Translations under genes and position numbers: made by a program
IMG/VR virus record: IMGVR_UViG_3300048591_000147
Location: 1 to 64,000 of that record
DNA: 64,000 nucleotides
Direction: 5' to 3' (one strand)
DNA from: a virus
In this document: positions 2,910 to 55,054 of the stretch, in pieces
Layout of the letters: every line of letters begins with the position of its first letter
Position numbering within the stretch: the first letter of the stretch is position 1
The notes under the pieces: model-generated
What the model was told of the DNA's origin: nothing
Databases searched by the model: none
The model's input: the letters and a program-made list of their open reading frames with translations, nothing else

Positions 2910-3179
2910 ATGAAACTAATTGATCTGATACAAGAACATAAAGACGAGAATAAAGACATAAGCAAGGCGCCACCACCAGATTCGGAGTGGATAACAACTG
3001 CGCAAGCCGCGAAGATGTTAGGTGTTACCATGTCTAGAATCAGACAAATGATAATGGATGGTCAGATTTCTTCAAAATCACCGATAAAGGGTAGACGAGA
3101 TAATCTAGTTTCTAGAAAAACCATAACAGCATTATCAAAGAAAGAAAGAAAACCAACCGGACGTCCAGAAGGCACCTAA
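2910..3179 (+). CDS. HTH DNA-binding protein (excisionase/MerR-like helix 'AQAAKMLGVTMSRIRQMIMDGQI')
   Basis: Helix-turn-helix pattern followed by a basic C-terminal tail. Confidence 0.45.
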   Translation: MKLIDLIQEHKDENKDISKAPPPDSEWITTAQAAKMLGVTMSRIRQMIMDGQISSKSPIKGRRDNLVSRKTITALSKKERKPTGRPEGT

Positions 3180-10801: not shown

Positions 10802-11587
10802 TCAATTTGGTGGAATATCCATTGTGTCTGCGTCAAACAATGTTTTATATGGTGGATCTTCTCTTGTAACGTCAGTCACTTTTTCCCAAATATCGTCTTG
10901 AGTTCGTATAGTATCCAATCGCAGTTTGATGGATTTTATGAAATTCTGTTTGATGTTGACTGGTGGGCTTAAATAAAACTGCACTCTGAAATTTAATGAT
11001 GTAACTATGACCCGCTTATCAGCGAGTTTTGGGTAATTTTTGTTAAAATCTACATTAACTAGCTCTACGCTAGTGATTTTCGTCAAGTCGTGAAAGTCGT
11101 CAGAAGTTTGAATTTGTAATACAGGATCAAAGATCATTAATATCTGTTCTAATATCTGTAAATGTTGGTCTTCATTACTACAATACATTGAAAGCTCAAA
11201 TAATCCGTCATATGGTATTGGTTGAGCTTGATAGACTACTTTTATGTCATCTGGTAACGATCCGCCCGCTGGTAGCACGCTATGGCGCATGAAAGTTCCG
11301 ACACCTTTTCTTCTAGATGGTACTTGTTCCATTCCGGCAAAATCAGCCGCGAACATGGGCAATCGTATAGGTTTATTTTGTGTATTCTCAGAAAGAATTG
11401 CATCCACTATTCGACTAGAATTACCATACCGGATAGGCACATACATTAGATTCTTAGTAGAATTGAAATTGTTTTTTCCAACAGATACTTGCAGCCCGGA
11501 AAATATGGCCATGAATTGTATTATATAGCTTCTGATTTGTTCGTCATAGAAATAGGTATCTAAGTCTTTCTTGAAATCATTATCCAT
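10802..11587 (-). CDS. Hypothetical protein (261 aa), minus-strand fibre operon
   Basis: ORF with start/stop abutting neighbours. No counterpart in the plus-strand module. Confidence 0.45.
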   Translation of the reverse strand: MDNDFKKDLDTYFYDEQIRSYIIQFMAIFSGLQVSVGKNNFNSTKNLMYVPIRYGNSSRIVDAILSENTQNKPIRLPMFAADFAGMEQVPSRRKGVGTFMRHSVLPAGGSLPDDIKVVYQAQPIPYDGLFELSMYCSNEDQHLQILEQILMIFDPVLQIQTSDDFHDLTKITSVELVNVDFNKNYPKLADKRVIVTSLNFRVQFYLSPPVNIKQNFIKSIKLRLDTIRTQDDIWEKVTDVTREDPPYKTLFDADTMDIPPN

Positions 11588-11946
11588 TAGACTGGGTGAA
11601 CTCCGGGTATAATAACATCCCTTTCATTACTAGCAATAACGCCTCTAATAATTACATCATATCCTTGTGTACGGGCAGACAAATTGGTAAATTCATATGT
11701 ACCATCACCCGCTGATGTAGTTGAAGCGACTAGAACCTTAAACTCTCTGTCAAAGACATCCACAACCCGAGATGCTGGCGCCATTCCAACTAGTACTAAA
11801 CCAGTGGGAGAGTCGCCAGCAACTCTTAACTCGCCGGGAGGTACATATTCATTCACAATAAATGAGGGTGTGAATGTTAATATATTAGATAGCGGGGCTA
11901 CAGGAAATAATACAGTATCTAAATACGCATCAATAATAAGAGCCAT
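11587..11946 (-). CDS. Fibre-module protein, paralog of 2301..2648
   Basis: See 2301..2648. Confidence 0.6.
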   Translation of the reverse strand: MALIIDAYLDTVLFPVAPLSNILTFTPSFIVNEYVPPGELRVAGDSPTGLVLVGMAPASRVVDVFDREFKVLVASTTSAGDGTYEFTNLSARTQGYDVIIRGVIASNERDVIIPGVHPV

Positions 11947-20736: not shown

Positions 20737-20799
20737 GATTAGATGAACCCCTGTTGTTAATTGTATTTATAATAACTGTAGTTCATCCTCAAATTTGAC

Positions 20800-20960
20800 A
20801 GATACGAATTGGTGTGTTAACATGCTTCACATGAGATCAGGGGAGTTCGACTCTCTCACGAGACTCCAAATAGAATTACTAGTCGAATTGTAAAGGGTTA
20901 TCGCATTCGGAGCGGCTGATATTGGTTCGATTCCAGTGTGTTCCATACAGAGGGACACTA
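20800..20960 (+). other. tRNA-like 3' fragments (T-arm plus acceptor 3' strand plus CCA) lacking 5' partners
   Basis: 'gggagttcgactctctcacgagactcca' and 'attggttcgattccagtgtgttcca'. No complementary 5' acceptor strand lies within 150 nt. Confidence 0.4.
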
Positions 20961-21040
20961 GCTTAATGGATAAAAGCAGCTAAAACATCCTTTCTTAATA
21001 CTTACTAGTATATTAATTTATGTCATAATGAGGAAGCAGC

Positions 21041-21210
21041 ATGGAATGTTACATGGTAGCAAGAAATCCATCAGGTGGAGATTATCTAGTCATGGATTAT
21101 TCATCCTTCGTTAGACAAGGTGGTAACGACCAATCATGGGGTAAGTGTTGGGTAACAATTTACGCTCGCTCCGCGAGTGAAGCTAGAGCTAAGGCATATC
21201 AATACTTATG
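21041..21210 (+). CDS. Small hypothetical protein (56 aa)
   Basis: Strong SD 'gaggaagcagcatg'. ATGA overlap with the next gene. Confidence 0.4.
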
Positions 21211-21468
21211 AAAGTTAATATCAAATTAGAAATTGTCCCATTTACGGTGCCGGATGACGTTGCTTTAAAAGGACCACCAGCACTTAGACAAGATGGATTT
21301 AAACCATTGCAAAGATATCCGCTATCAGCCTTAGACTATGATAGTTTGTCAGAATTATGTTCTAACTTTAGAAAAGAAATTTTCAAAAAGGCTGGAATCA
21401 TTGATCAACAAAATCATAATCCGTATCGCAGTTATGATTCGAATGGTGATCTTGAGGGTGGAAAATGA
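21208..21468 (+). CDS. Hypothetical protein (86 aa)
   Basis: ORF, translationally coupled to neighbours. Confidence 0.45.
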   Translation: MKVNIKLEIVPFTVPDDVALKGPPALRQDGFKPLQRYPLSALDYDSLSELCSNFRKEIFKKAGIIDQQNHNPYRSYDSNGDLEGGK

Positions 21469-21665
21469 CAGACAGATTTCATAGTTTTACAGTGGTTTTA
21501 AAAGAACCGATTCGCGAAGATGACGCAGAAGCATTGATGAATGCCATTAAATGCTTGAAAGGTGTAATTGATGTAGCTGGTAATGTTGCGGATGCTAACG
21601 CATATGTGGCATACTCCAGAGCACGCAGCGAGCTTCGTGATAAATTATGGGATGCACTGAAATGA
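21465..21665 (+). CDS. Hypothetical protein (66 aa)
   Basis: ORF. Confidence 0.4.
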   Translation: MTDRFHSFTVVLKEPIREDDAEALMNAIKCLKGVIDVAGNVADANAYVAYSRARSELRDKLWDALK

Positions 21666-21988
21666 CATCCACAATGGAAAGATTAAAAAAACATCTGGTA
21701 GCGGACAGGCAGAAGAGATTAGATGATCTAAGTGAACAAGATAATACGTTCTTTGATTTGACGAAAACTTCGGCTGAAAGATTTTTAAACAGAGTTAATG
21801 CGCAATTAGATCAAAGATGTCAAGTGATGGAAGCTATATTGCTTAGTCCAACATTTTCCAATGATGACAACAATCAGGAATATATTAACTGTAGCTTGTT
21901 GTTGGATAAGTATGAGAGTTTAATAAAACTTCTTCAACGAGATGATCTACTTGACATACTGGAAAAATGCGGTACAATAGAAGAATAA
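21647..21988 (+). CDS. Hypothetical protein (113 aa; true start possibly at 21662)
   Basis: ORF. Confidence 0.4.
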   Translation: MGCTEMTSTMERLKKHLVADRQKRLDDLSEQDNTFFDLTKTSAERFLNRVNAQLDQRCQVMEAILLSPTFSNDDNNQEYINCSLLLDKYESLIKLLQRDDLLDILEKCGTIEE

Positions 21989-22168
21989 AGAATATTGGTC
22001 GAACGATAAAAGGTTATCTCATTATCAGGGGCTGTAGGAAAGGTTCGAGTCCTTTCTCTTTTCACCAGAATGTAATTTGTGAAGATTATATCCATGTGAA
22101 AAGATGCGCTAGCGGCTGGCGGGCAAAAACATCTTTTTCATTAACTTACCAATTAATTAACAAAGTAG

Positions 22169-22197
22169 TTGACAGCAAGAATAATACGCAGTAGAAT
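22169..22197 (+). promoter_or_regulatory. Sigma70-type promoter TTGACA-N17-TAGAAT
   Basis: Exact -35 hexamer, 17-nt spacer, -10 TAGAAT. Lies inside repeat unit 1. Confidence 0.5.
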
Positions 22198-22380
22198 GTA
22201 CTAAATAAAGAGAACATTGGTCGAACTATAAAAGGTTACCACGTAAAGGGGATGTAGGAATGGTTTAAGTCCATTCGCTTTCCACCAAAATGTAATTTGA
22301 GAAGATTGCATTTCTATGGAAAGCTAGGCGAGGGTCCAGCCGTCCAAAAAAGTCTTTTGTAATAAACTTACCAATTAATG

Positions 22381-22388
22381 TATAAATA
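22381..22388 (+). promoter_or_regulatory. Late promoter motif TATAAATA
   Basis: Exact octamer at the unit 2/3 junction. Confidence 0.35.
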
Positions 22389-22788
22389 GAATAAAAATGT
22401 TGGTCGTTGATAGAAGTTTATCCGATAATCGTCCTAAGTAGAATGAAATAGTTCTGGATCTGGTAGATCTGATGATAAGAAAAATTACTTTTATTGTTAC
22501 ACCTTACCAACGAAAATTAAAATTGTTTAAGTCGAAAATGTAAAGGTTATCACAAACAGTCGTATGTGGGTTCGAGTCCCACCATTGCTGGAAGCAGTAA
22601 TAGTAGGCAAATTGGTTTAGCCAACCGTCAAAAACATCTTTCATTATTACTTACTTGAACATATAATTAGAATAAAATTGTCAGTCGATTTGTAGAAGAT
22701 TATCTTTCGTGAAAAAGGAAATATGGGTTCGACTCCCATCTCGGGCTTGGTGCTATCAAACTCTTTTACTATAACTTATTGACAAACA

Positions 22789-22796
22789 TATAAATA
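22789..22796 (+). promoter_or_regulatory. Late promoter motif TATAAATA
   Basis: Exact octamer before unit 6. Confidence 0.35.
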
Positions 22797-23010
22797 GAAT
22801 TTGTAGTCGATCTGCTAAGAATTATCTTTCAAATGGTGAAGTGGGCTAGGCCCATAATTTCTTGCTAATAACTTACTACAATAATTTTGAATTTATCAGT
22901 CGATAAATGATCATTATCACTCCGCCAAAACTTGGAGATTAGATGGTTCGAATCCATCACTAGCGTCGGTTCGCACTTGGTCGTTGACAACTTACTGGTA
23001 ATATATATTT

Positions 23011-23102
23011 GGATAGGTGTTCGAGCGGTTTAAGAAACTTGCCTTGAAAGCAAGAGATCCACCTAAAAACTGGGTCCGTGGGTTCGAATCCCACTCTATC
23101 CT
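23011..23102 (+). tRNA. tRNA-Ser (anticodon TGA), type II with a long variable arm
   Basis: Acceptor ggatagg/tctatcc (one G.U), D stem ttc/gaa, anticodon stem cttgc/gcaag with loop ctTGAaa, variable stem gatcca/tgggtc, T arm gtggg-ttcgaat-cccac. Confidence 0.6.
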
Positions 23103-23157
23103 CAGTTTTGTGTCCCCACATAAATAGATAAAGACTATTTAATGTGGGAACATAAGC

Positions 23158-23778
23158 ATGTATTATACGATATATCTAGTAACTAATACTATTAATGGTA
23201 ATGTTTACATAGGTAAACATCAAACGAATGATTTAAACGATGGCTATATGGGATCTGGTAAGATCCTTAAAAATGCCATTAAAAAATATGGACTTTGTAG
23301 TTTTCAAAAAACAATTTTACACATATTTGAAAACGAACAAGAGATGAATAAAAAAGAAGCAGAATTAGTAAATGAAGAGTTTATAGTACGAAAGGATACT
23401 TATAATATCTGTGTCGGTGGTTGTGGTGGATTTGGTTATATAAATAAAAATTTACCGAATGGTATGCTTGGTAAAAAGCAAACCGATTTCCAGAAACAAA
23501 GAGTGTCAGAGTGGCATGAGAAAAACAAACATCTTGTTGATAAAAACAAACACTCTGAAATGATTAAAAATGGATTGAAAAAAATGCTCAAACCTTCCGA
23601 TGGCTTTACAGGAAGGACACATACAGAAGATACCAAAAATAAAATGTGCAAGCCTAAAAATATTGGTGAAAGTAATTCACAGTTTGGTAGTATGTGGATA
23701 ACAGATGGTATAAATAGTATTAAAATAAAGAAGACAGATCTTATTCCAGAAGGATGGTATAAAGGTCGTAAAACGTGA
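23158..23778 (+). CDS. GIY-YIG homing endonuclease (Seg-like)
   Basis: 'MYYTIYLVTNTINGNVYIGKH' ... 'YNICVGGCGG'. Paralogous to 33438 and 47537. Confidence 0.7.
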   Translation: MYYTIYLVTNTINGNVYIGKHQTNDLNDGYMGSGKILKNAIKKYGLCSFQKTILHIFENEQEMNKKEAELVNEEFIVRKDTYNICVGGCGGFGYINKNLPNGMLGKKQTDFQKQRVSEWHEKNKHLVDKNKHSEMIKNGLKKMLKPSDGFTGRTHTEDTKNKMCKPKNIGESNSQFGSMWITDGINSIKIKKTDLIPEGWYKGRKT

Positions 23779-24103
23779 AAATGTTTTCTTTTTGGCGTGT
23801 CGTGTTACTGTTTAGTTGGGCTAAAGATGGACTTTGGTTCACTAGACGAAAAGATGGTGACAATGAGAAGCACTTAATAAGTTTTTGTTTTGTAGATAGA
23901 AAAGAAGGTCGCGTGTATACATTCATATGTTGGCGCTTCATGATTAAATTAGGTATTGTATAATTTTCACAGTCGATTAATCTGGTTTACCTTGGAGAAA
24001 CGTCCGACCTAAAAATCGGGTGCGAGTCTGGTTCAAACCCGGACAAAATAGCGAAAGCTATGCTGTATAAAACCATTTTAGCAACTTATTGTGATTTATA
24101 AGA

Positions 24104-32634: not shown

Positions 32635-33021
32635 ATGAATATAACAACAAAAAACTTACACGAATACACAGAGCAGCAAATTTTTGATTATGTGGTAGAT
32701 AAACTATTTACTCAAAATAGAGCTAGTATTAATGAAGATGATCATTGCCAATATCGTGGTGAGAACGGTATTAAATGTGCTGCCGGTCATTTAATAGCAG
32801 ATGAGGATTATGATCGCTCGTTTGAAGGTGCTATCTGGAGTGAATTGGTTGATAATGGTGATGTACCAAAGGAACATTTCAATTTGATTGGAAAATTACA
32901 ACAGATGCATGATTCTGTTGCATTTAACAATAGTGGGTGGTTCGCTAGCATGTTGGATTACGCTGCTGACGAATTGGCTTCAGAACTACATCTGAAATAT
33001 ACCAGAAAAAATTTCAGTTGA
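32635..33021 (+). CDS. 'KCAAGHLIPD'-family protein, copy 4 (128 aa)
   Basis: 'MNITTKNLHEYTEQQIFDYVVDK' aligns with the copy 1-3 N-termini. 'IKCAAGHLIADED'. Confidence 0.55.
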   Translation: MNITTKNLHEYTEQQIFDYVVDKLFTQNRASINEDDHCQYRGENGIKCAAGHLIADEDYDRSFEGAIWSELVDNGDVPKEHFNLIGKLQQMHDSVAFNNSGWFASMLDYAADELASELHLKYTRKNFS

Positions 33022-33046
33022 CAGCAGCACTAAATAGATGTAAGAT
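33018..33046 (+). promoter_or_regulatory. Sigma70-type promoter TTGACA-N17-TAAGAT in front of the tRNA cluster
   Basis: Exact -35 hexamer. 17-nt spacer. Confidence 0.5.
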
Positions 33047-33055
33047 ACACAAACT

Positions 33056-33437: not shown

Positions 33438-34313
33438 ATGAAAGTTTATACCGTATATAAAACCACAAACATCGTAAATAACAAATATTATATCGGCGTA
33501 CATAAGACTGCCAATCCAAATGATGATTATCTTGGTTCTGGCACCGTCTTCAAGTTAGCAATCAAAAAATACGGAAAACAAAACTTCAAAAAAGAAGTTT
33601 TGTTTGTATTTGATGATTTAAAAGACGCATATGAAAAAGAATATGAATTAGTTAATGAAGCATTTGTAAAATGTGAAGATAATTATAACTTGCACATTGG
33701 TGGGTCTGGTGGATTAGCTTTTGAATACATCAACAATGATGTTGAATTTAGAAAAGCAAAGAATAGAAAAGCCCAAGCCGCCATGATAGCTACTGGATAT
33801 TATAAAACACCAGAACATAAAGCTAAAATGTCTGAGTTAAGGAAACAAGAATATAAAGAAGGTAAAAGAGTAGTTAATCCAGAATTTCCAAATGCTTTTA
33901 AAGGAAAGAAACATTCTGAAGAAACTTTAAGAAAAATGAGTGAGTCATCGAAAGGTGTAACTGCGGGGGAGAAAAATTCGCAGTTTGGCACTAGATGGTG
34001 TAATGATGGCGTGAATAATATCAAAATATCCAAGGGTGGGGAAATTCCAGAAGGCTACCACTTGGGTAAAGTTAAACTGGCTAAAGAGCAGCGCAAGCCG
34101 CGTATAGTAAAGTCACAAAAGAAACATGATAATTATGATTTTGGTGCACCAAGAAGAAAAGCTACAATAGAAGATATTAAAATTGCATTATTAAAACATG
34201 ATAAAAACATAAACGATGCGATGGTTAGTTTAGGATATAAAGCGAATAGTTCAGGCAACTCTAGATATAGATTTGAAAAGGTGTTAAAAGCACTTGACAT
34301 CAGCACTAAATAG
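33438..34313 (+). CDS. GIY-YIG homing endonuclease (Seg-like) with a C-terminal DNA-binding extension
   Basis: 'KVYTVYKTTNIVNNKYYIGVHKT' ... 'YNLHIGGSGG'. Confidence 0.7.
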   Translation: MKVYTVYKTTNIVNNKYYIGVHKTANPNDDYLGSGTVFKLAIKKYGKQNFKKEVLFVFDDLKDAYEKEYELVNEAFVKCEDNYNLHIGGSGGLAFEYINNDVEFRKAKNRKAQAAMIATGYYKTPEHKAKMSELRKQEYKEGKRVVNPEFPNAFKGKKHSEETLRKMSESSKGVTAGEKNSQFGTRWCNDGVNNIKISKGGEIPEGYHLGKVKLAKEQRKPRIVKSQKKHDNYDFGAPRRKATIEDIKIALLKHDKNINDAMVSLGYKANSSGNSRYRFEKVLKALDISTK

Positions 34314-34336
34314 AAGTATCATAGCAACATATCAAT

Positions 34337-34423
34337 TGGATCGTCACCCAGTGGACGAAGGTAGCGGGCTTTTAACCCGATTGCGAAAGCACAACGTGGG
34401 TTCGAATCCCACCGATCCAACCA
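34337..34423 (+). tRNA. Type-II-like tRNA gene (anticodon loop cuuuuaa; identity uncertain), copy 1
   Basis: Perfect acceptor tggatcg/cgatcca, T arm gtggg-ttcgaat-cccac, CCA encoded. Anticodon stem cggg/cccg. 15-nt variable arm. Confidence 0.5.
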
Positions 34424-34843: not shown

Positions 34844-35034
34844 GTGCTGCATTACAAGTTGGAAAAGCCATTGATATTCTTTCAAAATATGAAGAAATCT
34901 CTATTGCTGCTGATCATGATGAAATTTATTTAGGTGTTGGGTATGAGAATACCGTTTCATTGGAAGATGAAACCGCTTTGAAAGAACTCGGTTTTCGAGA
35001 GAATAGTCACAATTATTGGCGCAAGTACATTTGA
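34840..35034 (+). CDS. Hypothetical protein (64 aa)
   Basis: ORF, overlapping start. Confidence 0.4.
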   Translation: MSAALQVGKAIDILSKYEEISIAADHDEIYLGVGYENTVSLEDETALKELGFRENSHNYWRKYI

Positions 35035-35085
35035 CAGTGGCCGAATGGTCAGGTAAGATACATCCACACTAAATAGGATACACCA

Positions 35086-35366: not shown

Positions 35367-35479
35367 TGGATCGTCACCCAGTGGACGAAGGTAGCGGGCT
35401 CTTAAAATACTTTTACGAGAGTATTTTGAAACCCGATTGCGAAAGCACAACGTGGGTTCGAATCCCACCGATCCAACCA
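35367..35479 (+). tRNA. Copy 2 of the 34337 tRNA-like gene, carrying a 31-nt hairpin insertion in the anticodon loop
   Basis: Identical to copy 1 except that 'ctcttaaaatacttttacgagagtattttgaaa' replaces 'cttttaa'. The insert forms a 7-bp hairpin aaaatac/gtatttt. Confidence 0.45.
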
Positions 35480-38009: not shown

Positions 38010-38525
38010 ATGTCACTCATTTATACTCTATTCATCATATTCGTCATCGGTTGTCTGATCTATTATTTCTTTTCTCTCAGAAATCAAAAGAGTGATTTGG
38101 ACAAGTATAAAATTGCATTGGATGAATATGACAGGCATCTAGAAGAATGCTCAAGAGCTATGGCGCAGCAATACAAGCATACGGTGACAACAATCACCAC
38201 GACTGCGGAACAACCTGCTAATACGCCTGCGAAGAAGGCTAAAAAAGCACCTACGAAGGTGTATGCGGCTAAAAGTGCTCCATACTCGTATGATCGTTCA
38301 AAATCTAATGCAAATAGCAACAACAACGCTGACAATAATATTATTCAATTCCCATATGTGCATCATGCGGTAGTTGATGACGATTCGTGCAAGACTTCAA
38401 ATTCCTCTAGACAATCCTGTGAGTCTCCTGTAGAATCATATTCTGGTTCCAGTTACTCAAGCGATAGTTCAAGTTCATCGTCTTGCGATTCTGGTGGTTC
38501 CTCATGTGGTGGCGGTGGAGATTGA
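38010..38525 (+). CDS. N-terminal TM protein with a Ser/Cys/Gly-rich low-complexity C-terminus
   Basis: TM 'LIYTLFIIFVIGCLIYYFF'. C-terminal 'SSYSSDSSSSSSCDSGGSSCGGGGD'. Confidence 0.45.
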   Translation: MSLIYTLFIIFVIGCLIYYFFSLRNQKSDLDKYKIALDEYDRHLEECSRAMAQQYKHTVTTITTTAEQPANTPAKKAKKAPTKVYAAKSAPYSYDRSKSNANSNNNADNNIIQFPYVHHAVVDDDSCKTSNSSRQSCESPVESYSGSSYSSDSSSSSSCDSGGSSCGGGGD

Positions 38526-38526
38526 A

Positions 38527-39180
38527 ATGTTTGACTTCGACCCCAGTGTTCGTCATTTCTTAAGCATAAGAAAGCGTCTTGGAGATGGTGGACCAGAATT
38601 TATCGCTTACCGTTATGGTAGCAGAGTTTATGGGACTGAATCATATGACTCAGACTATGATTATATCGTAGTCTCTGAAAAAGCAGAGGATGGTAAAGAA
38701 GAATATTTCTACGCTCAGCAGGATCAACTGAACGTTCATTATCATACGCCAGCACATTGGCAACAGATGGTGGACGATCATAAAATTTTCGCTTTGGAGA
38801 GTATCTTTCAATGTGAGCAATCACACCAATATAGAAAGAATTTTAAACTTGATCTAACCAAACTGCGCAAAGAGATTTCTGAAAAGTCAAATCATAGTTG
38901 GGTGAAGGCTAAGAAAAAATTACTGGTCGAACATGACTATAAGATCGGCTTGAAAAGCTTCTTCCATTCCTTTAGAATCATCATGTTCGGCTGTCAAATT
39001 GCAAGGGACGGTCACATTTATGATTATAAGATCGGGCATACCATATGGGAGCCTATCAAAGCCCTTATGCTTGAAATTAACGCGGATAACGTAGAAGAAA
39101 TCTACGCGAAATTGGTTATAGATTATAAGTGGTATCACAATAACCTCATGACAGAATTTAGGAAGTTGGCACCAAAATGA
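38527..39180 (+). CDS. Pol-beta-superfamily nucleotidyltransferase (NTase) with a helical C-terminal domain
   Basis: 'AYRYGSRVYGTESYDSDYDYIVV' matches G[SG]x9-13Dx[DE]. Start taken at the internal ATG after the upstream gene's stop. Confidence 0.55.
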   Translation: MFDFDPSVRHFLSIRKRLGDGGPEFIAYRYGSRVYGTESYDSDYDYIVVSEKAEDGKEEYFYAQQDQLNVHYHTPAHWQQMVDDHKIFALESIFQCEQSHQYRKNFKLDLTKLRKEISEKSNHSWVKAKKKLLVEHDYKIGLKSFFHSFRIIMFGCQIARDGHIYDYKIGHTIWEPIKALMLEINADNVEEIYAKLVIDYKWYHNNLMTEFRKLAPK

Positions 39181-46959: not shown

Positions 46960-47364
46960 ATGCAAAAGAAGAAACCGCATGAATTAAAAGAGACTGACAT
47001 CATTATTTACATTCAGGCTGCTATGGGTGTAAAGATATATAAAATCCTATCAATTGATAGGGTGTGGATGCAGATAAAGAATCAGTTTAATGCGTATCCG
47101 AAGGTGAGTAAGGCTATAGACTGGAATGGTTTACCACCATCCGCGAGAGCCAGATCAAAGACATTGTATAGGGATGAATACATCACTATTAATGATGAAT
47201 ACGCAGCGTTATGTGAGTTGAACAAGTTGAATGTCGATAACAATGAAAATGTGGCTCGACAAAACTTGCAGAACATGATACAATCGGTTAAAAGAGAATT
47301 ATACCCTGACGGATGGATTGAAGATTACGCAGAGTATAAAGCTAAAAGAGATGGTGCGCGATAA
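46960..47364 (+). CDS. Hypothetical protein (134 aa)
   Basis: ORF. Confidence 0.45.
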   Translation: MQKKKPHELKETDIIIYIQAAMGVKIYKILSIDRVWMQIKNQFNAYPKVSKAIDWNGLPPSARARSKTLYRDEYITINDEYAALCELNKLNVDNNENVARQNLQNMIQSVKRELYPDGWIEDYAEYKAKRDGAR

Positions 47365-47439
47365 AAACATGTTGCAGATTCTTTGAGTGTGTGATACCAT
47401 ATATACAAGATGTAGGAAATAAAAATTACGGGACTGTCT

Positions 47440-47513
47440 TCTAACTGGCGAAGAATCCTCACTGTCGATGAGTATAATGTGGGTTCGAATCCCATCAGTC
47501 CCGCATAAATAGA
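47440..47513 (+). tRNA. tRNA-Asp (anticodon GTC)
   Basis: Perfect acceptor gggactg/cagtccc. D stem ttct/agaa. Anticodon stem ctca/tgag with loop ctGTCga. T arm gtggg-ttcgaat-cccat. Confidence 0.6.
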
Positions 47514-47536
47514 GAATATCAATATGAGAATTCTCT

Positions 47537-48187
47537 ATGTTTTATACGGTTTATAAAATAACAAACATAAAAAATAATATGGTTTATGTAGGTGTCCATA
47601 AAACACTTGATTTAAATGATAATTATTTTGGGTCTGGACAGTATCTACGTGCCGCTATCAAAAAGTATGGAATATCAATCTTCACAAAGAAGATATTAGC
47701 AGTATTTGATACTCCCGAAGAAATGTTTAACATGGAGCGAAAAATAGTAACTGAGGAATTTGTAAAATCTAAAAATACGTATAACCTTGGAATAGGTGGG
47801 TCTGGTGGTAATAGAGTAGGTAAAGATCATCATACCCATTCGCTCTCCAATATGACAAGCATGTCAGAAAAAGCAAAGGCATCTTGGAATGATGTGACTT
47901 CAAGGGGGGAGAGGGTGAAAAAGTTAGCTACCAGAAATAGTAAGCTACATAAAATTGGCATACTTAAAAGACCTGATTGGACAGGCAGAAAACATAAAGA
48001 AAGTACAAAGCAGAAAATTTCTGAGAAAAATTCTAAAAATAGAACTGGTGAAGCAAACCATAGATTTGGTAAATGCTGGATAACAGATGGTACGATAAAT
48101 CGATCCGTATGTAAGGAAGCGGAATTACCAGATGGTTGGAGATATGGTAGAGTAATGAAAACGAACATAGTTGACAACACTAAATAA
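47537..48187 (+). CDS. GIY-YIG homing endonuclease (Seg-like)
   Basis: 'MFYTVYKITNIKNNMVYVGVHKT' ... 'YNLGIGGSGG'. Confidence 0.7.
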   Translation: MFYTVYKITNIKNNMVYVGVHKTLDLNDNYFGSGQYLRAAIKKYGISIFTKKILAVFDTPEEMFNMERKIVTEEFVKSKNTYNLGIGGSGGNRVGKDHHTHSLSNMTSMSEKAKASWNDVTSRGERVKKLATRNSKLHKIGILKRPDWTGRKHKESTKQKISEKNSKNRTGEANHRFGKCWITDGTINRSVCKEAELPDGWRYGRVMKTNIVDNTK

Positions 48188-48212
48188 GTTGTGTATGATA
48201 CAAAATAAAAAT

Positions 48213-48315
48213 GGGAACCTCGTATAAAGTGTGAGCAAGTGCATTAACCTCACATTTGGAATTATGGACAGCGTAATAACTGTCAGATTATGGTTCGAAT
48301 CCATGGGTCCCGCCA
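48213..48315 (+). tRNA. Over-length tRNA-like gene (100 nt)
   Basis: Acceptor gggaacc/gggtccc (1 mismatch) plus G plus CCA. T arm tatgg-ttcgaat-ccatg. Internal hairpins gtgag/ctcac and gacag/ctgtc (8-nt loop). Confidence 0.3.
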
Positions 48316-48318
48316 AAG

Positions 48319-48326
48319 TATAAATA
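48319..48326 (+). promoter_or_regulatory. Late promoter motif TATAAATA upstream of tRNA-Trp
   Basis: Exact octamer. Confidence 0.35.
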
Positions 48327-48335
48327 AAGTAATAT

Positions 48336-48411
48336 GGGTTATTAGTGTAATCAGGCCGCACGCGAGTCTCCAAAACTCTTAGTCTGGGTTCAAATCCTAG
48401 ATAGCCCGCCA
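48336..48411 (+). tRNA. tRNA-Trp (anticodon CCA)
   Basis: Acceptor gggttat/atagccc. D stem gtgt/gcac. Anticodon stem gagt/actc with loop ctCCAaa. T arm ctggg-ttcaaat-cctag. CCA encoded. 76 nt. Confidence 0.7.
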
Positions 48412-48433
48412 TATAATGTAATAAAAGATAAGT

Positions 48434-48512
48434 GAGCGGTTGGCGGAACGGTAGACGCAGATGGCCTAAAAAACTGTCTCCTTAGTGGTTCGAATCCACT
48501 ACAGGCTCACCA
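48434..48512 (+). tRNA. tRNA-Leu-like gene (Leu-type D arm 'GGCGGAACGGTAGACGC'); acceptor and anticodon arms imperfect
   Basis: T arm agtgg-ttcgaat-ccact. The 5' acceptor gagcggt pairs only 4/7 with the 3' strand. Possibly chimeric or a pseudogene. Confidence 0.3.
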
Positions 48513-48534
48513 GAATAATGTAATAGTATAATGG

Positions 48535-48653
48535 CATGTAGCTTAGAGGCAGAGCGAGTGACTGTGGAAGGAAACGTCAAGGCGTTGATCAGTTCGAATC
48601 TGATAACTTCAAAAGTAATCACTAGGTCGTAGGTTCGATCCCTACCTTGCCAG
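48535..48653 (+). tRNA. Over-length tRNA-like gene (119 nt) containing an internal extra T-arm-like hairpin
   Basis: Outer acceptor tggcatg/cttgcca (1 U.U). Terminal T arm gtagg-ttcgatc-cctac. Internal 'atcag-ttcgaat-ctgat'. Confidence 0.3.
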
Positions 48654-48667
48654 CATAAAATTTAAAT

Positions 48668-48806
48668 GTCTCTTTGGCCGAGTGGACTATGGCAACAGGC
48701 TGTGGGTGTAAGAGTAAAGGCTCTGATCAGTTCGAATCTGAAATCACCGAAAGTAACCTGTCAGATGAAAATCTAATCACTGGTTCGAATCCAGTAGGGG
48801 ACTCCA
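48668..48806 (+). tRNA. Over-length tRNA-like gene (139 nt), Ser-type D loop 'GGCCGAGTGG', containing an internal extra T-arm-like hairpin
   Basis: Outer acceptor gtctctt/aggggac (two G.U) plus T plus CCA. Terminal T arm actgg-ttcgaat-ccagt. 'acagg' and 'cctgt' sit ~70 nt apart. The internal 'tgatcagttcgaatctga' duplicates the one in 48535..48653. Confidence 0.3.
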
Positions 48807-48861
48807 ATATTTTTTAGGACACGACATACATAAATAACATGTATATACAGAGTGTCCTAAA

Positions 48862-49767
48862 ATGAAAAATAACATAACAAACGATATTGAGCTTTTCAAG
48901 CAGATAGTTCTTAAAAGTAAGAGCATAAGACAGGTTTTAAAATTTTTTAACATCTCATCAAATTCTGCTAGATATTTTACAGCCTTCCATGATCTCGTTA
49001 AATTATATGACATTGATATAAATCATTTCATTGCTTATAAAAGACTAATTGTACCAACAGACTTCGATTGGGGGCGGGTTAACTCTATAAAAGATGCCGC
49101 AGAACAATTAAAATTGATCGAACCGGAAGCCAAGCTATGTTCAACGTGGTATGGAAAAATTAAACAATACATTAACAATAATAATGTTGATGTGTCACAC
49201 TTCAACTACAATGGCAGATATAGAAATTTAAATAGAAGATATAATCATGATGATATCTTCATAGAAGACTCCATGGTATCTAAACAAACATTAAAGGCAA
49301 GATATTCAGCGCTGCGTTCAGACAATATCAGATGTGATATGAGCGATTGCATCATATCCGATAATTGGTTAGGTCGTCAGATCACATTACATCTGGACCA
49401 TATTGATGGTAATAATAGAAATAATTGTTTAACAAATTTACGCTTCTTGTGCCCGAACTGTCACAGCCAAACGTCCACATATGCTGGAAGAAACTTAAAG
49501 TTACACTCTAAAAAGCCAGAATATAAAAGAAAATACGTACCAAAACCAAAAAAGCAAAAAACTGAAAATATTATACCGCGTGAGAAGTACAAAAGGCCAG
49601 AACAGTTCACCGTAGATAAAGATGCGTTACAATCATTGATCATGACTAATTCCATGGTGGAGGTTGCAAAACTCTTCAAAGTGTCGGATAATGCGATTAG
49701 AAAGAGATGCAAGAAATTGGGCATTGATTTGTCGCTTTCTAAAAATAAAAGGACTTCAAAAATATGA
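48862..49767 (+). CDS. HNH homing endonuclease (Mob-like) with a C-terminal HTH
   Basis: 'HLDHIDGNNRNNCLTNLRFLCPNCH'. Paralog of 20008..20736. Confidence 0.65.
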   Translation: MKNNITNDIELFKQIVLKSKSIRQVLKFFNISSNSARYFTAFHDLVKLYDIDINHFIAYKRLIVPTDFDWGRVNSIKDAAEQLKLIEPEAKLCSTWYGKIKQYINNNNVDVSHFNYNGRYRNLNRRYNHDDIFIEDSMVSKQTLKARYSALRSDNIRCDMSDCIISDNWLGRQITLHLDHIDGNNRNNCLTNLRFLCPNCHSQTSTYAGRNLKLHSKKPEYKRKYVPKPKKQKTENIIPREKYKRPEQFTVDKDALQSLIMTNSMVEVAKLFKVSDNAIRKRCKKLGIDLSLSKNKRTSKI

Positions 49768-54979: not shown

Positions 54980-55054
54980 GCCCATTTAGCTCAGAGAAAG
55001 AGCAGCGATAGCGTATAGCGGCGAGCGCGGGTTCAAGTCCCGTAGTGGGCTCCA
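54980..55054 (+). tRNA. tRNA-like gene (acceptor gcccatt/agtgggc, D arm gctc/gagc, T arm gcggg-ttcaagt-cccgt, CCA); anticodon arm not foldable by eye
   Basis: 75 nt. The region 'gcgatagcgtatagcgg' lacks complementarity. Confidence 0.35.

Follow-up and report, generated by a model that had tools for sequence, protein, structure and literature searches.

Optional 50-nt anticodon-loop inserts in tRNA-Asn genes of a jumbo T4-like phage, candidates for protein-spliced mini-introns

To our knowledge, the tRNA introns of Bacteria described so far are all self-splicing ribozymes, and splicing of tRNA by proteins is not known to occur in this domain; introns removed in that way are considered characteristic of Archaea and eukaryotes. 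Intervening sequences excised by RNase III were reportedly described in bacterial 23S rRNA (Salmonella and others) by Burgin and co-workers in 1990. Among phages, 'enigmatic' short introns were found in tRNA genes of the Lak megaphages (Devoto et al. 2019, PMC6784885), and these are the closest precedent for the inserts described here. In Patescibacteria, group I introns are located at positions 35/36 of tRNA-Asn and tRNA-Asp (PMC13011429).

The window, which is the whole stretch of DNA analysed (64,000 nt of the IMG/VR virus record IMGVR_UViG_3300048591_000147), carries at 48171-48806 one cluster of five tRNA-type genes with a single promoter in front; all features given below are on the plus strand. 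The promoter-like site is of sigma-70 type (48171..48199, TTGACA-17-TATGAT, 11 of 12 matches), and by direct sequence reading the motif 'ttgaca..cactaaata' is also present ahead of other tRNA groups in the window. The cluster lies between ORFs of homing-endonuclease type, with a GIY-YIG (Seg-like) ORF directly upstream (47537..48187) and an HNH-type ORF (48862..49767, phrog_10822 at 3e-40) directly downstream of the gene designated B. An orthologue of the HNH ORF, with 90% identity, was detected in L017/L018 only, likewise immediately after gene B, and this is the other genome, besides the window, with introns in both genes A and B; the HNH ORF is a possible DNA-level partner of the 50-nt introns. 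The L-numbered loci are related metagenomic phages used for comparison. They are close relatives (74-91% identity over one protein), and therefore some of the conservation reported below may be mere recent ancestry. The phage is a jumbo T4-like myovirus and a distant relative of Xanthomonas phage XacN1, the nearest named phage (50% identity over a tail protein); the KVP40-type phages named for comparison in an earlier note on this DNA are not its relatives. Its host is bacterial, as judged from the sigma-70-type promoters and the XacN1-type relatives.

The tRNA-Trp(CCA) gene (48336..48411) was canonical and without intron (loop CTCCAAA); the ARAGORN call and an Rfam score of 50.8 bits agree with its previous description as textbook. 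Three over-long neighbours with acceptor and T arms, also reported in the earlier note, were confirmed, and no ordinary 72-90-nt tRNAs with other boundaries were found in their place. The length of 139 nt stood for 48668-48806 (gene B), while 48213-48315 (gene C) measures 103 and not 100 nt, and the remaining one (gene A) starts at 48532 and not at 48535, which gives 122 nt up to the discriminator. The 7-bp acceptor helices ascribed to them held only in part: gene B has seven pairs, two of them G:U, but gene A shows a T:T mismatch at 6:67 and gene C has one base missing.

Default ARAGORN made no call for any of these three genes. When introns were allowed, A and B were each called tRNA-Asn(gtt) with a 50-nt intron. 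Gene A (48532-48653) scored 50.2 bits and gene B (48668-48806) 36.1 bits against the Rfam tRNA model RF00005 (gathering threshold 29 bits), and both reached the threshold only when the same gap of 53 unaligned nucleotides was allowed in the anticodon loop. Since both pass the tRNA model, a structured non-tRNA RNA, one of the explanations initially offered, was discarded for A and B. Gene A is a class I tRNA-Asn(GUU). Its exon 1 (48532..48565) ends with CTGT, positions 32-35, and exon 2 (48616..48653) starts with TAA, positions 36-38, and ends with the discriminator G, without an encoded CCA; U1-A72 and G73 agree with Escherichia coli tRNA-Asn. Gene B has a class II body with a long variable arm and anticodon GUU. 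Its exon 1 is located at 48668..48703, and exon 2 (48754..48806) comprises TAA, the anticodon stem, the variable-arm hairpin AGAT-GAAA-ATCT, the T arm, the acceptor strand, U73 and CCA.

In both genes the 50-nt insert is placed precisely between anticodon positions 35 and 36 (CUGU^UAA), as an A-type intron in gene A (48566..48615, 74.5 bits with the covariance model R1) and a B-type intron in gene B (48704..48753, 77.4 bits). The empty site CUGUUAA is the standard Asn anticodon loop, and in the interrupted loop CTGT + TAA is the sole prefix/suffix combination that gives CTGTTAA. Intron-free alleles of the same genes, with the loop CTGTTAA, are present in related metagenomic phages: L005A is an orthologue of gene A with the same exons as the intron-bearing L015A, and the intron-free L015b belongs to a gene lineage shared with L003 and L013, which bear the intron. 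The 50-nt insert is shown to be an optional, site-specific element, with and without which otherwise identical genes occur; the 'short intervening sequences' suggested before are thus borne out for the 122- and 139-nt genes as precise anticodon-loop inserts.

A 50-nt insert is present at this one common site in three tRNA(GUU) gene bodies that are unrelated to each other. The class I Asn 'third' gene of L003 and L013, with exons unrelated to those of the class II gene B, carries almost the same B-type intron, the two copies being about 94% identical (by-eye reading). All the Asn genes seen in the window and in L017 were intron-bearing. Model R1 recovered 14 copies (72-79 bits), all of them in tRNA(GUU) genes, and no other match in 236 kb; the boundaries were CTGT^GG...AAAG^TAA in 14 of 14. 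The same insert architecture is present in at least eight independent assemblies, so the 50-nt inserts are not assembly artefacts. By sequence reading, no target-site duplication and no transposon-like end were seen, the sole terminal repeat being the 4-bp helix P1 described below, and a transposon-type insertion was rejected on these grounds. Pattern scans for the intron gave one contig, of the same clade, in IMG/VR, two true loci plus three chance matches in coding DNA in the metagenome collection, and chance matches only in the GTDB genome collection. No match was obtained by blastn with the INPHARED phages.

The insert folds as a three-way junction with a 4-bp closing helix P1, a small hairpin P2 and a T-arm copy P3 (5-bp stem, UUCRAAY loop). 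The A-type intron is composed of G, P1 GAAG/CTTC, P2 (loop TCAAGG), P3 ATCAG TTCGAAT CTGAT and AAAAG, and the B-type has P1 GGTG/CACC, P2 loop TAAAGG and the same T-arm look-alike as the A-type. The internal T-arm-like hairpin that two of the over-long genes had been said to share is TGATCAGTTCGAATCTGA, a 5-bp stem with a TTCGAAT loop; this 18-mer occurs exactly twice in the 64 kb, at 48586 and 48724 (0.11 expected). As it forms part of the 50-nt three-way junction and not of a second tRNA, the proposed tandem tRNA fusions were dismissed. The P2 loop always ends with GG, which is invariant, as is UUC in the T loop. Modelled in this way, the insert looks like a miniature tRNA 'elbow', in which the D-loop GG would dock on the T loop.

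In the proposed fold 97.6% of cells pair, versus 27-39% with the partners slid by 1-3 columns. Ten pairs changed on both sides and none of 500 shuffles reached the observed score, a covariation that rests essentially on one divergence event (A-type versus B-type) and a few single changes. RNAalifold independently gave the same three helices. This pattern of changes indicates that the insert itself is under structural selection.

The Lak introns share several features with this locus. In both, the anticodon loop of a phage tRNA is interrupted by a short non-coding insert without Rfam match, and alleles with and without the insert exist. A T-arm-like or tRNA-like module is present in Lak too, since the Tyr intron contains AATTGG-TTCGAAT-CCAATT (our own reading of Table S6, PMC6784885). 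On the other hand, Lak introns have 79-114 nt, with a 5' hairpin, an A-rich linker AAATTAAA and a fuller tRNA-like module, whereas the insert has 50 nt and a 4-bp closing helix; compared by eye, the TTCGAAT loop was the only likeness, and the 5' hairpin and linker were not found here. Lak belongs to another phage lineage than the T4-like jumbo phage studied here, and its Thr intron is apparently at 36/37, while the Asn and Trp introns here are at 35/36. Covariation and multi-gene site specificity have not previously been described.

A genome-wide pattern of interrupted tRNA genes, as envisaged in the earlier note, was upheld by the gene at 35367-35479 and by the D-loop insertion of gene C. The former has a class II body and carries a 26-nt hairpin intron at 35404..35429 (loop CTCTT^AA), with a deduced junction that may shift by one or two A with the product unchanged; its intron-free paralogue at 34337-34423 has the loop CTTTTAA. 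ARAGORN calls 'tRNA-Stop (tta)' for relatives of this gene. A suppressor tRNA (cut at 35/36, giving CUA/UUA) was set aside as less likely, because the intron-free paralogue reads CTTTTAA. A hairpin of 28 nt interrupts the Trp gene at CTCC^AAA in L003, L005, L010, L017, L021 and L025. These hairpin introns are unrelated to the 50-nt class. They form a 14-bp helix from U33 on, capped by a tetraloop, and compensatory changes preserve their pairing as well as their length of 28 or 26 nt; the junction is unique in Trp and was picked among three equivalents in the Lys-type.

RNase III-type geometry (a continuous duplex of about one turn or more, staggered cuts, 2-nt 3' overhang) fits the hairpin introns: cut as deduced, they would be released as 10-11-bp hairpins whose 3' end overhangs by 2 nt, just as RNase III products do. 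It does not fit the 50-nt intron, with an irregular internal loop at its junctions. The 26-28-nt introns resemble the 23S rRNA intervening sequences, in which an optional extended hairpin replaces a loop of a stable RNA and is excised by a duplex-specific nuclease of the host. The 23S rRNA fragments are not re-ligated, while an anticodon-cut tRNA would need re-ligation; moreover, the 50-nt intron, with its three-way junction, differs from a simple duplex.

Gene C (48213..48315) has an acceptor stem, D-arm, anticodon-type arm GACAG/CTGTC, T arm and encoded CCA. The 3' strand of the acceptor is one base short in comparison with the L017 orthologue, and the gene had no Rfam match at E<=10. Homologues that align over the full length are present in L003, L005, L010, L013, L015, L017 and L021, and the D, anticodon and acceptor stems covary in this family. 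The D-loop bears a 25-nt hairpin (48230..48254, stem TGTGAG/CTCACA, loop with conserved GCATTAAC); its stem covaries across the family and the loop motif ATGCATTAA is conserved. The anticodon-type loop CGTAATAA (48272..48279) has 8 nt, one more than a normal tRNA loop, and the family loops mostly have 8 nt of variable sequence, some having 7 or 9. With the D-loop hairpin deleted in silico, ARAGORN calls several family members tRNAs, and the near-identical L017 orthologue without hairpin is given the 4-base anticodon 'taat'. On these alignments, 48213-48315 is assigned to a conserved tRNA family with a D-loop hairpin and an 8-nt anticodon loop. Rescue by single deletion was also applied to tRNA-like elements at 20.8-24 kb, where only a weakly called Arg(tcg) was recognised; in one further element of that region, single deletions gave five ARAGORN calls with a two-base anticodon.

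Gene D (48434..48512) is derived from tRNA-Leu, with D-arm and T-arm intact, no variable arm and an unpaired anticodon stem. The mismatched acceptor noticed before consists of four pairs followed by three mismatches, and the Rfam tRNA score was 16.7 bits, under the 29-bit threshold. It was present in the window, L010/L011, L013 and L021 only, and in L021 a bona fide tRNA-Leu(CAA) beside it shows the parts that gene D lost. Gene D is a decayed tRNA-Leu relic; the idea of chimeras or relics applies to this Leu-like gene only and not to the other genes.

The inserts of A and B, together with the hairpin inserts, are probably optional, protein-spliced mini-introns, for which we infer both the splicing and the enzymes from sequence. 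Two endonucleolytic cuts, at U35/G1 and G50/U36, would remove the 50-nt intron from the transcript, the tRNA body would hold the exon halves together after cutting, and a phage tRNA-repair-type RNA ligase (Rnl1, Rnl2 or RtcB) would seal them. The elbow mimic suggests that a tRNA-recognising enzyme could be recruited for cutting. As DNA, the inserts are probably maintained in this homing-endonuclease-rich region as elements that are selfish or protective. A more detailed version is proposed tentatively: phage mobile mini-introns of an elbow-mimic and a bare-hairpin class may split anticodons and be removed by RNA-processing nucleases and a phage tRNA-repair ligase. The nucleases would be RNase III-type for the hairpins and a tRNA-elbow-recognising nuclease for the 50-nt class.

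The 50-nt intron does not fit cleanly any known cleavage geometry, as the junction region is an irregular internal loop and not a duplex; MFE and consensus folds gave a 3-nt bulge, a 2-bp helix and a 3x3 internal loop at the junctions. As in archaeal and eukaryal protein-spliced introns, the inserts are short, structured and located in the anticodon loop, the intron pairs partly with the anticodon region, and an endonuclease and a ligase would be needed. The bulge-helix-bulge motif was rejected on geometry, because cuts at 35/36 leave no exon bases for a 4-bp central helix between 3-nt bulges. Excision of the 50-nt insert by RNase P/RNase Z was rejected by reasoning only, the P1/T-arm-mimic sites being 1-4 nt off the allele-fixed junctions.

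In a search that covered about a fifth of the genome, neither RNA ligase, polynucleotide kinase, RNase III nor splicing-endonuclease domains, EndA-type splicing endonuclease included, were among the Pfam families listed (25 of 34) for the 108 window ORFs. T4 RnlA, RnlB and PseT had no tblastn match in 248 kb (window plus related loci), and when T4 RnlB was used as tblastn query against the phage collection, the XacN1-group phages were not among the best 60 of 1,404 records. XacN1 has three Rnl2 paralogues (PMC7824862), and relatives of the phage lineage thus encode several RNA ligases.

The exons of the interrupted genes A and B look functional. The anticodon stems of the interrupted genes read TGC/GCA, GAC/GTC and TTC/GAA, acceptor pairs 2:71 and 3:70 covary among them, and the variable-arm stem of gene B is GTGC/GCAC in L010 and L017, with four of four pairs changed and pairing kept. 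Such compensatory changes argue against the interrupted genes being dead, an explanation that we consider unlikely and according to which the 50-nt and hairpin elements would be selfish DNA insertions, spread through gene conversion near the cuts of homing endonucleases, would knock out phage tRNA genes that are redundant and would remain in the RNA for good. The half-loops CTGT and TAA, unchanged in all 14 intron copies, the genomes in which only interrupted Asn genes occur in the region seen, the structural selection on the insert and the sequence reading of its ends, with neither target-site duplication nor transposon-like end, are also contrary to it. What speaks for dead genes is that no splicing machinery was identified in the window or related loci, that gene D (16.7 bits) and gene C (one-base acceptor deletion) are defective neighbours in the cluster, that tRNA-Asn is supplied by the host anyway, and that presence or absence of the insert differs among close relatives, as recent insertions would.

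Rather less probable still is that the inserts stay in the mature RNA, giving 122- and 139-nt tRNA-like RNAs in which a second 'elbow' replaces the anticodon, and which might serve as decoys for host anticodon nucleases or tRNA-binding factors. The comparison here is with T4 rnaC (species 1, 139 nt) and rnaD (species 2, 119 nt), over-long tRNA-like genes that end a T4-type cluster beside a GIY-YIG gene and encode stable RNAs of unknown function. A T-arm copy and a GG loop are protein and RNA recognition elements, and the evolution of phage tRNAs against tRNA-targeting defences is described in PMC10264068. However, the half-loops rebuild a perfect Asn loop, the intron-free alleles are ordinary tRNAs, and three different functional tRNA bodies would be needless for a decoy. 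Genes A and B have no sequence or structure similarity to rnaC or rnaD, which were without match to the tRNA model with an anticodon-loop insert; the sole tRNA-clan match over both was a weak tRNA-Sec match of rnaC (17.5 bits, E 0.83). Homology to the T4 genes had been prompted by the lengths of 139 and 119 nt; it was rejected, as MAFFT gave no meaningful register, and the equal lengths in the first reading are a coincidence.

The group I introns of Patescibacteria (PMC13011429) and the inserts described here interrupt the same tRNA at the same GU^U site, the 5' exon ends with U and the intron with G, and standard tRNA finders miss or mis-assign both. The former are full-size self-splicing ribozymes, detected by RF00028 or a tRNA-specific group I model, while the latter is 50 nt long and coreless; U/G boundaries and the 35/36 site alone do not make it a group I intron. 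With Rfam, only tRNA matches were obtained at E<=10 for 47300-49000 and no intron family at the gathering threshold for the whole window, and known ribozyme and intron families were rejected on this basis. Although the site and boundary nucleotides equal those of the patescibacterial introns and the fold is conserved, compact and tertiary-looking, it is highly improbable that the 50-nt element processes itself as a very small RNA, be it a new self-cleaving/self-ligating motif or a group I remnant whose splicing would be done in trans by a complete ribozyme from another part of the genome, as it has about a quarter of the length of the smallest group I introns known to us, no readable P3-P9 core, no internal guide sequence complementary to CUGU and no Rfam ribozyme match in these searches, and in Trp the base before the hairpin intron, inserted at this very position, is a C, which group I chemistry does not allow.

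The 50-nt intron is neither a group I intron nor of the bulge-helix-bulge type, yet it is kept in functional-looking tRNA genes of phages whose promoters are bacterial in type, and a bacterial route for cutting and rejoining tRNA that has not been described is therefore implied. It is the site-exact presence and absence of the insert in A and B that points to such a splicing route. Because standard annotation (default ARAGORN) misses such genes, counts of tRNA genes in large phages are too low. Additionally, the 'enigmatic' Lak introns become a testable problem, with short, defined substrates whose junctions are fixed by intron-free alleles; the covariation-supported fold and the two structurally different intron classes per genome are further assets for testing. 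If the proposed splicing is true, it would be the first non-ribozyme tRNA splicing pathway at work in bacterial cells, and the 'tRNA repair' enzymes of phages would have a routine housekeeping role.

Within 48213-48806, tRNA-Trp (48336-48411) was the sole default ARAGORN call. For this interval the earlier note had reported, by eye, a cluster of over-long tRNA-type genes. The cluster was borne out, with the corrections that gene A starts 3 nt away from the start read there and that the first element is 103 nt long, not 100. The Rfam tRNA model gave full-length matches to gene A (48532-48653; 50.2 bits) and to gene B (gene 48668-48806; match 48668-48803, 36.1 bits), leaving in both 53 nt unaligned after CUGU in the anticodon loop. 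With introns allowed, ARAGORN called each gene as tRNA-Asn(gtt) with a 50-nt intron. The 18-mer singled out in the earlier note occurs twice in the window, once per 50-nt insert (0.11 expected). The Leu-like gene at 48434-48512 scored 16.7 bits with the same model, and the Rfam search gave no match for the tRNA-like gene at 48213-48315. Immediately 5' of the first element, at 48171-48199, the sequence TTGACA-17-TATGAT strongly matches a sigma-70-type promoter, and thus the five genes appear to form a single transcription unit. TTGACA with CACTAAATA about 10 nt downstream recurs 5' of tRNA groups and of some ORFs (33019-33053, 34297-34330, 35033-35080 and 48172-48206) and looks like a phage-specific promoter class. 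A tRNA at 54980-55054 was missed by default ARAGORN; it scored 40.6 bits with Rfam and was called Arg(gcg) by ARAGORN at a lowered threshold.

Among the window's products is a T4-type tail sheath stabiliser; of its named relatives, the best is that of Xanthomonas jumbo phage XacN1 (50% identity). No close relative of the tRNA cluster was found among GenBank phages. Metagenomic close relatives were reached via a DUF4419 protein encoded 2.4 kb upstream of the cluster (74-91% protein identity), and loci L005 and L008 were added by pattern scans. The clade sample comprises at least 8 independent assemblies, and therefore the inserts are not assembly artefacts.

Sequence comparison showed that gene A, of class I, carries the insert in the window and in the related loci L015 and L017 and lacks it in L005. 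L005 and L015 carry identical exons, with CTGTTAA in the empty allele. Another class I Asn gene, starting GGxTCATTGGTATG and unrelated in sequence to gene A, is interrupted by the insert in L003 and L013 and is without it in L015, where it reads CTGTTAA. Gene B, whose class II body has a long variable arm, always contains the insert. Since CTGT plus TAA is the sole possible join by which CTGTGG...AAAGTAA gives CTGTTAA, the insert, as read from these alleles, sits inside the anticodon, between positions 35 and 36. Two sequence subtypes were distinguished, A-type in gene A only and B-type common to gene B and the unrelated class I Asn gene. A covariance model of the insert alone recovered 14 copies (72-79 bits) from tRNA(GUU) genes and none from elsewhere in the 236 kb of window and relatives.

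A three-way junction was predicted both by RNAfold, run on single sequences, and by RNAalifold, run on seven distinct copies. Helix P1 has 4 bp (GAAG/CTTC in A-type, GGTG/CACC in B-type), P2 has 4-5 bp and always GG at its loop end, and P3 is a copy of a T arm, with a 5-bp stem and a UUCRAAY loop. Standard pairs filled 97.6% of cells on the proposed fold and 27-39% with partners slid by 1-3 columns. Both sides changed at ten pairs, and none of 500 shuffles reached the observed covariation score; inside the intron this support is real but shallow, coming mainly from one divergence between A-type and B-type. In every tRNA, the elbow places a GG loop beside the T loop UUC. Because the insert has an invariant GG loop beside an invariant T-loop UUC, we infer that it is a miniature tRNA elbow.

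The anticodon stems around the insert are TGC/GCA, GAC/GTC and TTC/GAA among orthologues, fully compensated, acceptor pairs 2:71 and 3:70 covary, and gene B has AGAT/ATCT as its variable-arm stem in the window versus GTGC/GCAC in L010 and L017. Neither half-loop, CTGT or TAA, varies. In the window and L017, all Asn genes seen are interrupted. As far as comparison can show, the interrupted genes are still under selection as tRNAs, which favours excision of the insert from the RNA over dead genes. The inserts can securely be regarded as precise intervening sequences, whose exact site, optional nature, fold and exon selection were established by the comparison. Gene B combines a class II body and a covarying variable-arm hairpin, yet has the Asn anticodon GUU and U73, which is not expected for a bacterial tRNA-Asn.

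Splicing at the RNA level is likely. The transcript would be cut between U35 and G1 and between G50 and U36, the tRNA body would keep the two halves paired, and a ligase of the phage tRNA-repair set would seal the anticodon loop. Several tRNA-repair-type ligases are encoded by relatives, XacN1 among them (PMC7824862); none was found in the window or the collected relative loci by Pfam, among the families listed, and tblastn. The ORF at 38494-39180 has a weak Pol-beta-type nucleotidyltransferase match (NTP_transf_2, E 7e-4; phrog_388, 2e-7), which makes its product a possible CCA-adding enzyme or one associated with RNA repair.

If the P1/T-arm mimic followed the simple rules for RNase P or RNase Z, cleavage would be off the junctions by 1-4 nt; some other tRNA-binding enzyme may use the elbow mimic as its handle. 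In a bulge-helix-bulge, two 3-nt bulges enclose four exon-intron base pairs, for which the junctions, both at 35/36, leave no room; the fold predicted around them combines a 3-nt bulge (U36-A38) with two pairs (C32-G50, U33-A49) and a 3x3 internal loop. Self-splicing group I introns of Patescibacteria share with the insert the tRNA-Asn 35/36 site, a 5' exon ending in U and an intron ending in G (PMC13011429); a group I intron was rejected here, 50 nt being far too small and tRNA being the only Rfam match even at E<=10. Homology to T4 rnaC/rnaD was dismissed, nothing being in common with genes A and B in sequence or fold; the likeness lies in the lengths (rnaD 119 nt, rnaC 139 nt; T4 locus L001, 2909-3172), which are those given in the earlier note for the window genes, in the gene order and in an adjoining GIY-YIG gene.

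A GIY-YIG ORF and an HNH ORF border the tRNA cluster. The HNH gene (48862-49767), directly after gene B, has an orthologue only in L017/L018 (L017 9144-10034), the other genome with genes A and B both interrupted, and was absent from the available stretch of L005 and L015, the genomes with an empty Asn allele. This distribution fits, weakly, an intron that shields its site from the neighbouring homing endonuclease.

A second class consists of hairpin introns. The gene at 35367-35479 is a copy of 34337-34423 plus a 26-nt hairpin in the anticodon loop, found likewise in relatives, and tRNA-Trp carries a 28-nt hairpin at CTCC^AAA in many relatives and in the contig L025, the window Trp being intronless. 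In both, the pre-tRNA forms a 14-bp helix from U33 with a tetraloop cap, and compensatory changes keep length and pairing. The junction is unique for Trp; for 35367-35479 it is one of three equivalent positions, chosen via the intronless paralogue. With these junctions the excised hairpin has 10-11 bp and a 2-nt 3' overhang, a geometry that, by textbook enzymology, suggests an RNase III product. Such a cut would leave 3'-OH and 5'-P ends directly joinable by an ATP-dependent RNA ligase.

Class II tRNA bodies with Lys anticodons (3-bp D stem, long variable arm, U1-A72, A73) were present at 34337-34423 and 35367-35479 of the window, L010 3454-3566, L013 1335-1447 and L014 1897-2009. The anticodon is UUU, and CUU in the interrupted window copy; ARAGORN called the interrupted copies suppressors (tta). 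L013 also has ordinary 76-nt tRNA-Lys(UUU) and (CUU).

The family of 48213-48315 has 1-2 members per phage, with a 7-bp acceptor stem, a T arm, a D-loop containing a 24-30-nt hairpin with a conserved ATGCATTAA loop, and an anticodon-type arm whose loop is 7-9 nt, mostly 8, and variable in sequence. Its stems covary. After in silico deletion of the D-loop hairpin, ARAGORN recognised several members as tRNAs, for example as Leu(caa) and Tyr(gta), and the near-identical copy in L017 with a 4-base anticodon 'taat'. In the window copy, a base has been lost from the 3' strand of the acceptor. The gene at 48434-48512, found in some relatives only, retains a tRNA-Leu T arm and 5' third, with a broken acceptor stem and neither anticodon stem nor variable arm; a decaying relic or a chimera is the best reading.

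At least 8 further small genes lie at 20775-24055, and most of them are individually preceded by a TTGACA/-10 promoter-like site. A good T arm is present in each and a CCA end in some, and they share a box AGTCGA...(A)AAGGTTATC. The sole tRNA call was a weak Arg(tcg) at 20873-20945, and no single-segment deletion made recognisable tRNAs of these genes. An over-long tRNA-type gene starting GGGGTTTAGCTCAGTG (L017 8401-8550; L015 about 11470-11620) has about 73 nt inserted between the two strands of its anticodon stem, including a TAGTCGAAATT box as in the window elements at 20.8-24 kb.

A further tRNA-gene-rich IMG/VR phage contig, IMGVR_UViG_3300034065_000062 (L025; features at 2050-2151 and 2976-3103), contains, besides the 28-nt Trp hairpin intron, a tRNA-type gene of 128 nt, about 55 nt of which are insert. 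Interrupted tRNA genes therefore also occur outside the contigs collected via the DUF4419 protein.

Short tRNA introns of Lak megaphages were termed enigmatic (PMC6784885); the literature yielded no other earlier report of short phage tRNA introns and no described mechanism for them. By our reading of Table S6 of that paper, Lak introns also end in a T-arm-bearing, tRNA-like module. In contrast to them, the present insert is much smaller, has a defined three-way-junction fold and a site fixed by empty alleles, is common to three gene bodies and is accompanied by a separate hairpin class, and on these grounds is a new variant. The finding is real and unusual and, taken with the Lak module, the tRNA-mimicking intron seems to recur as a solution among large phages.
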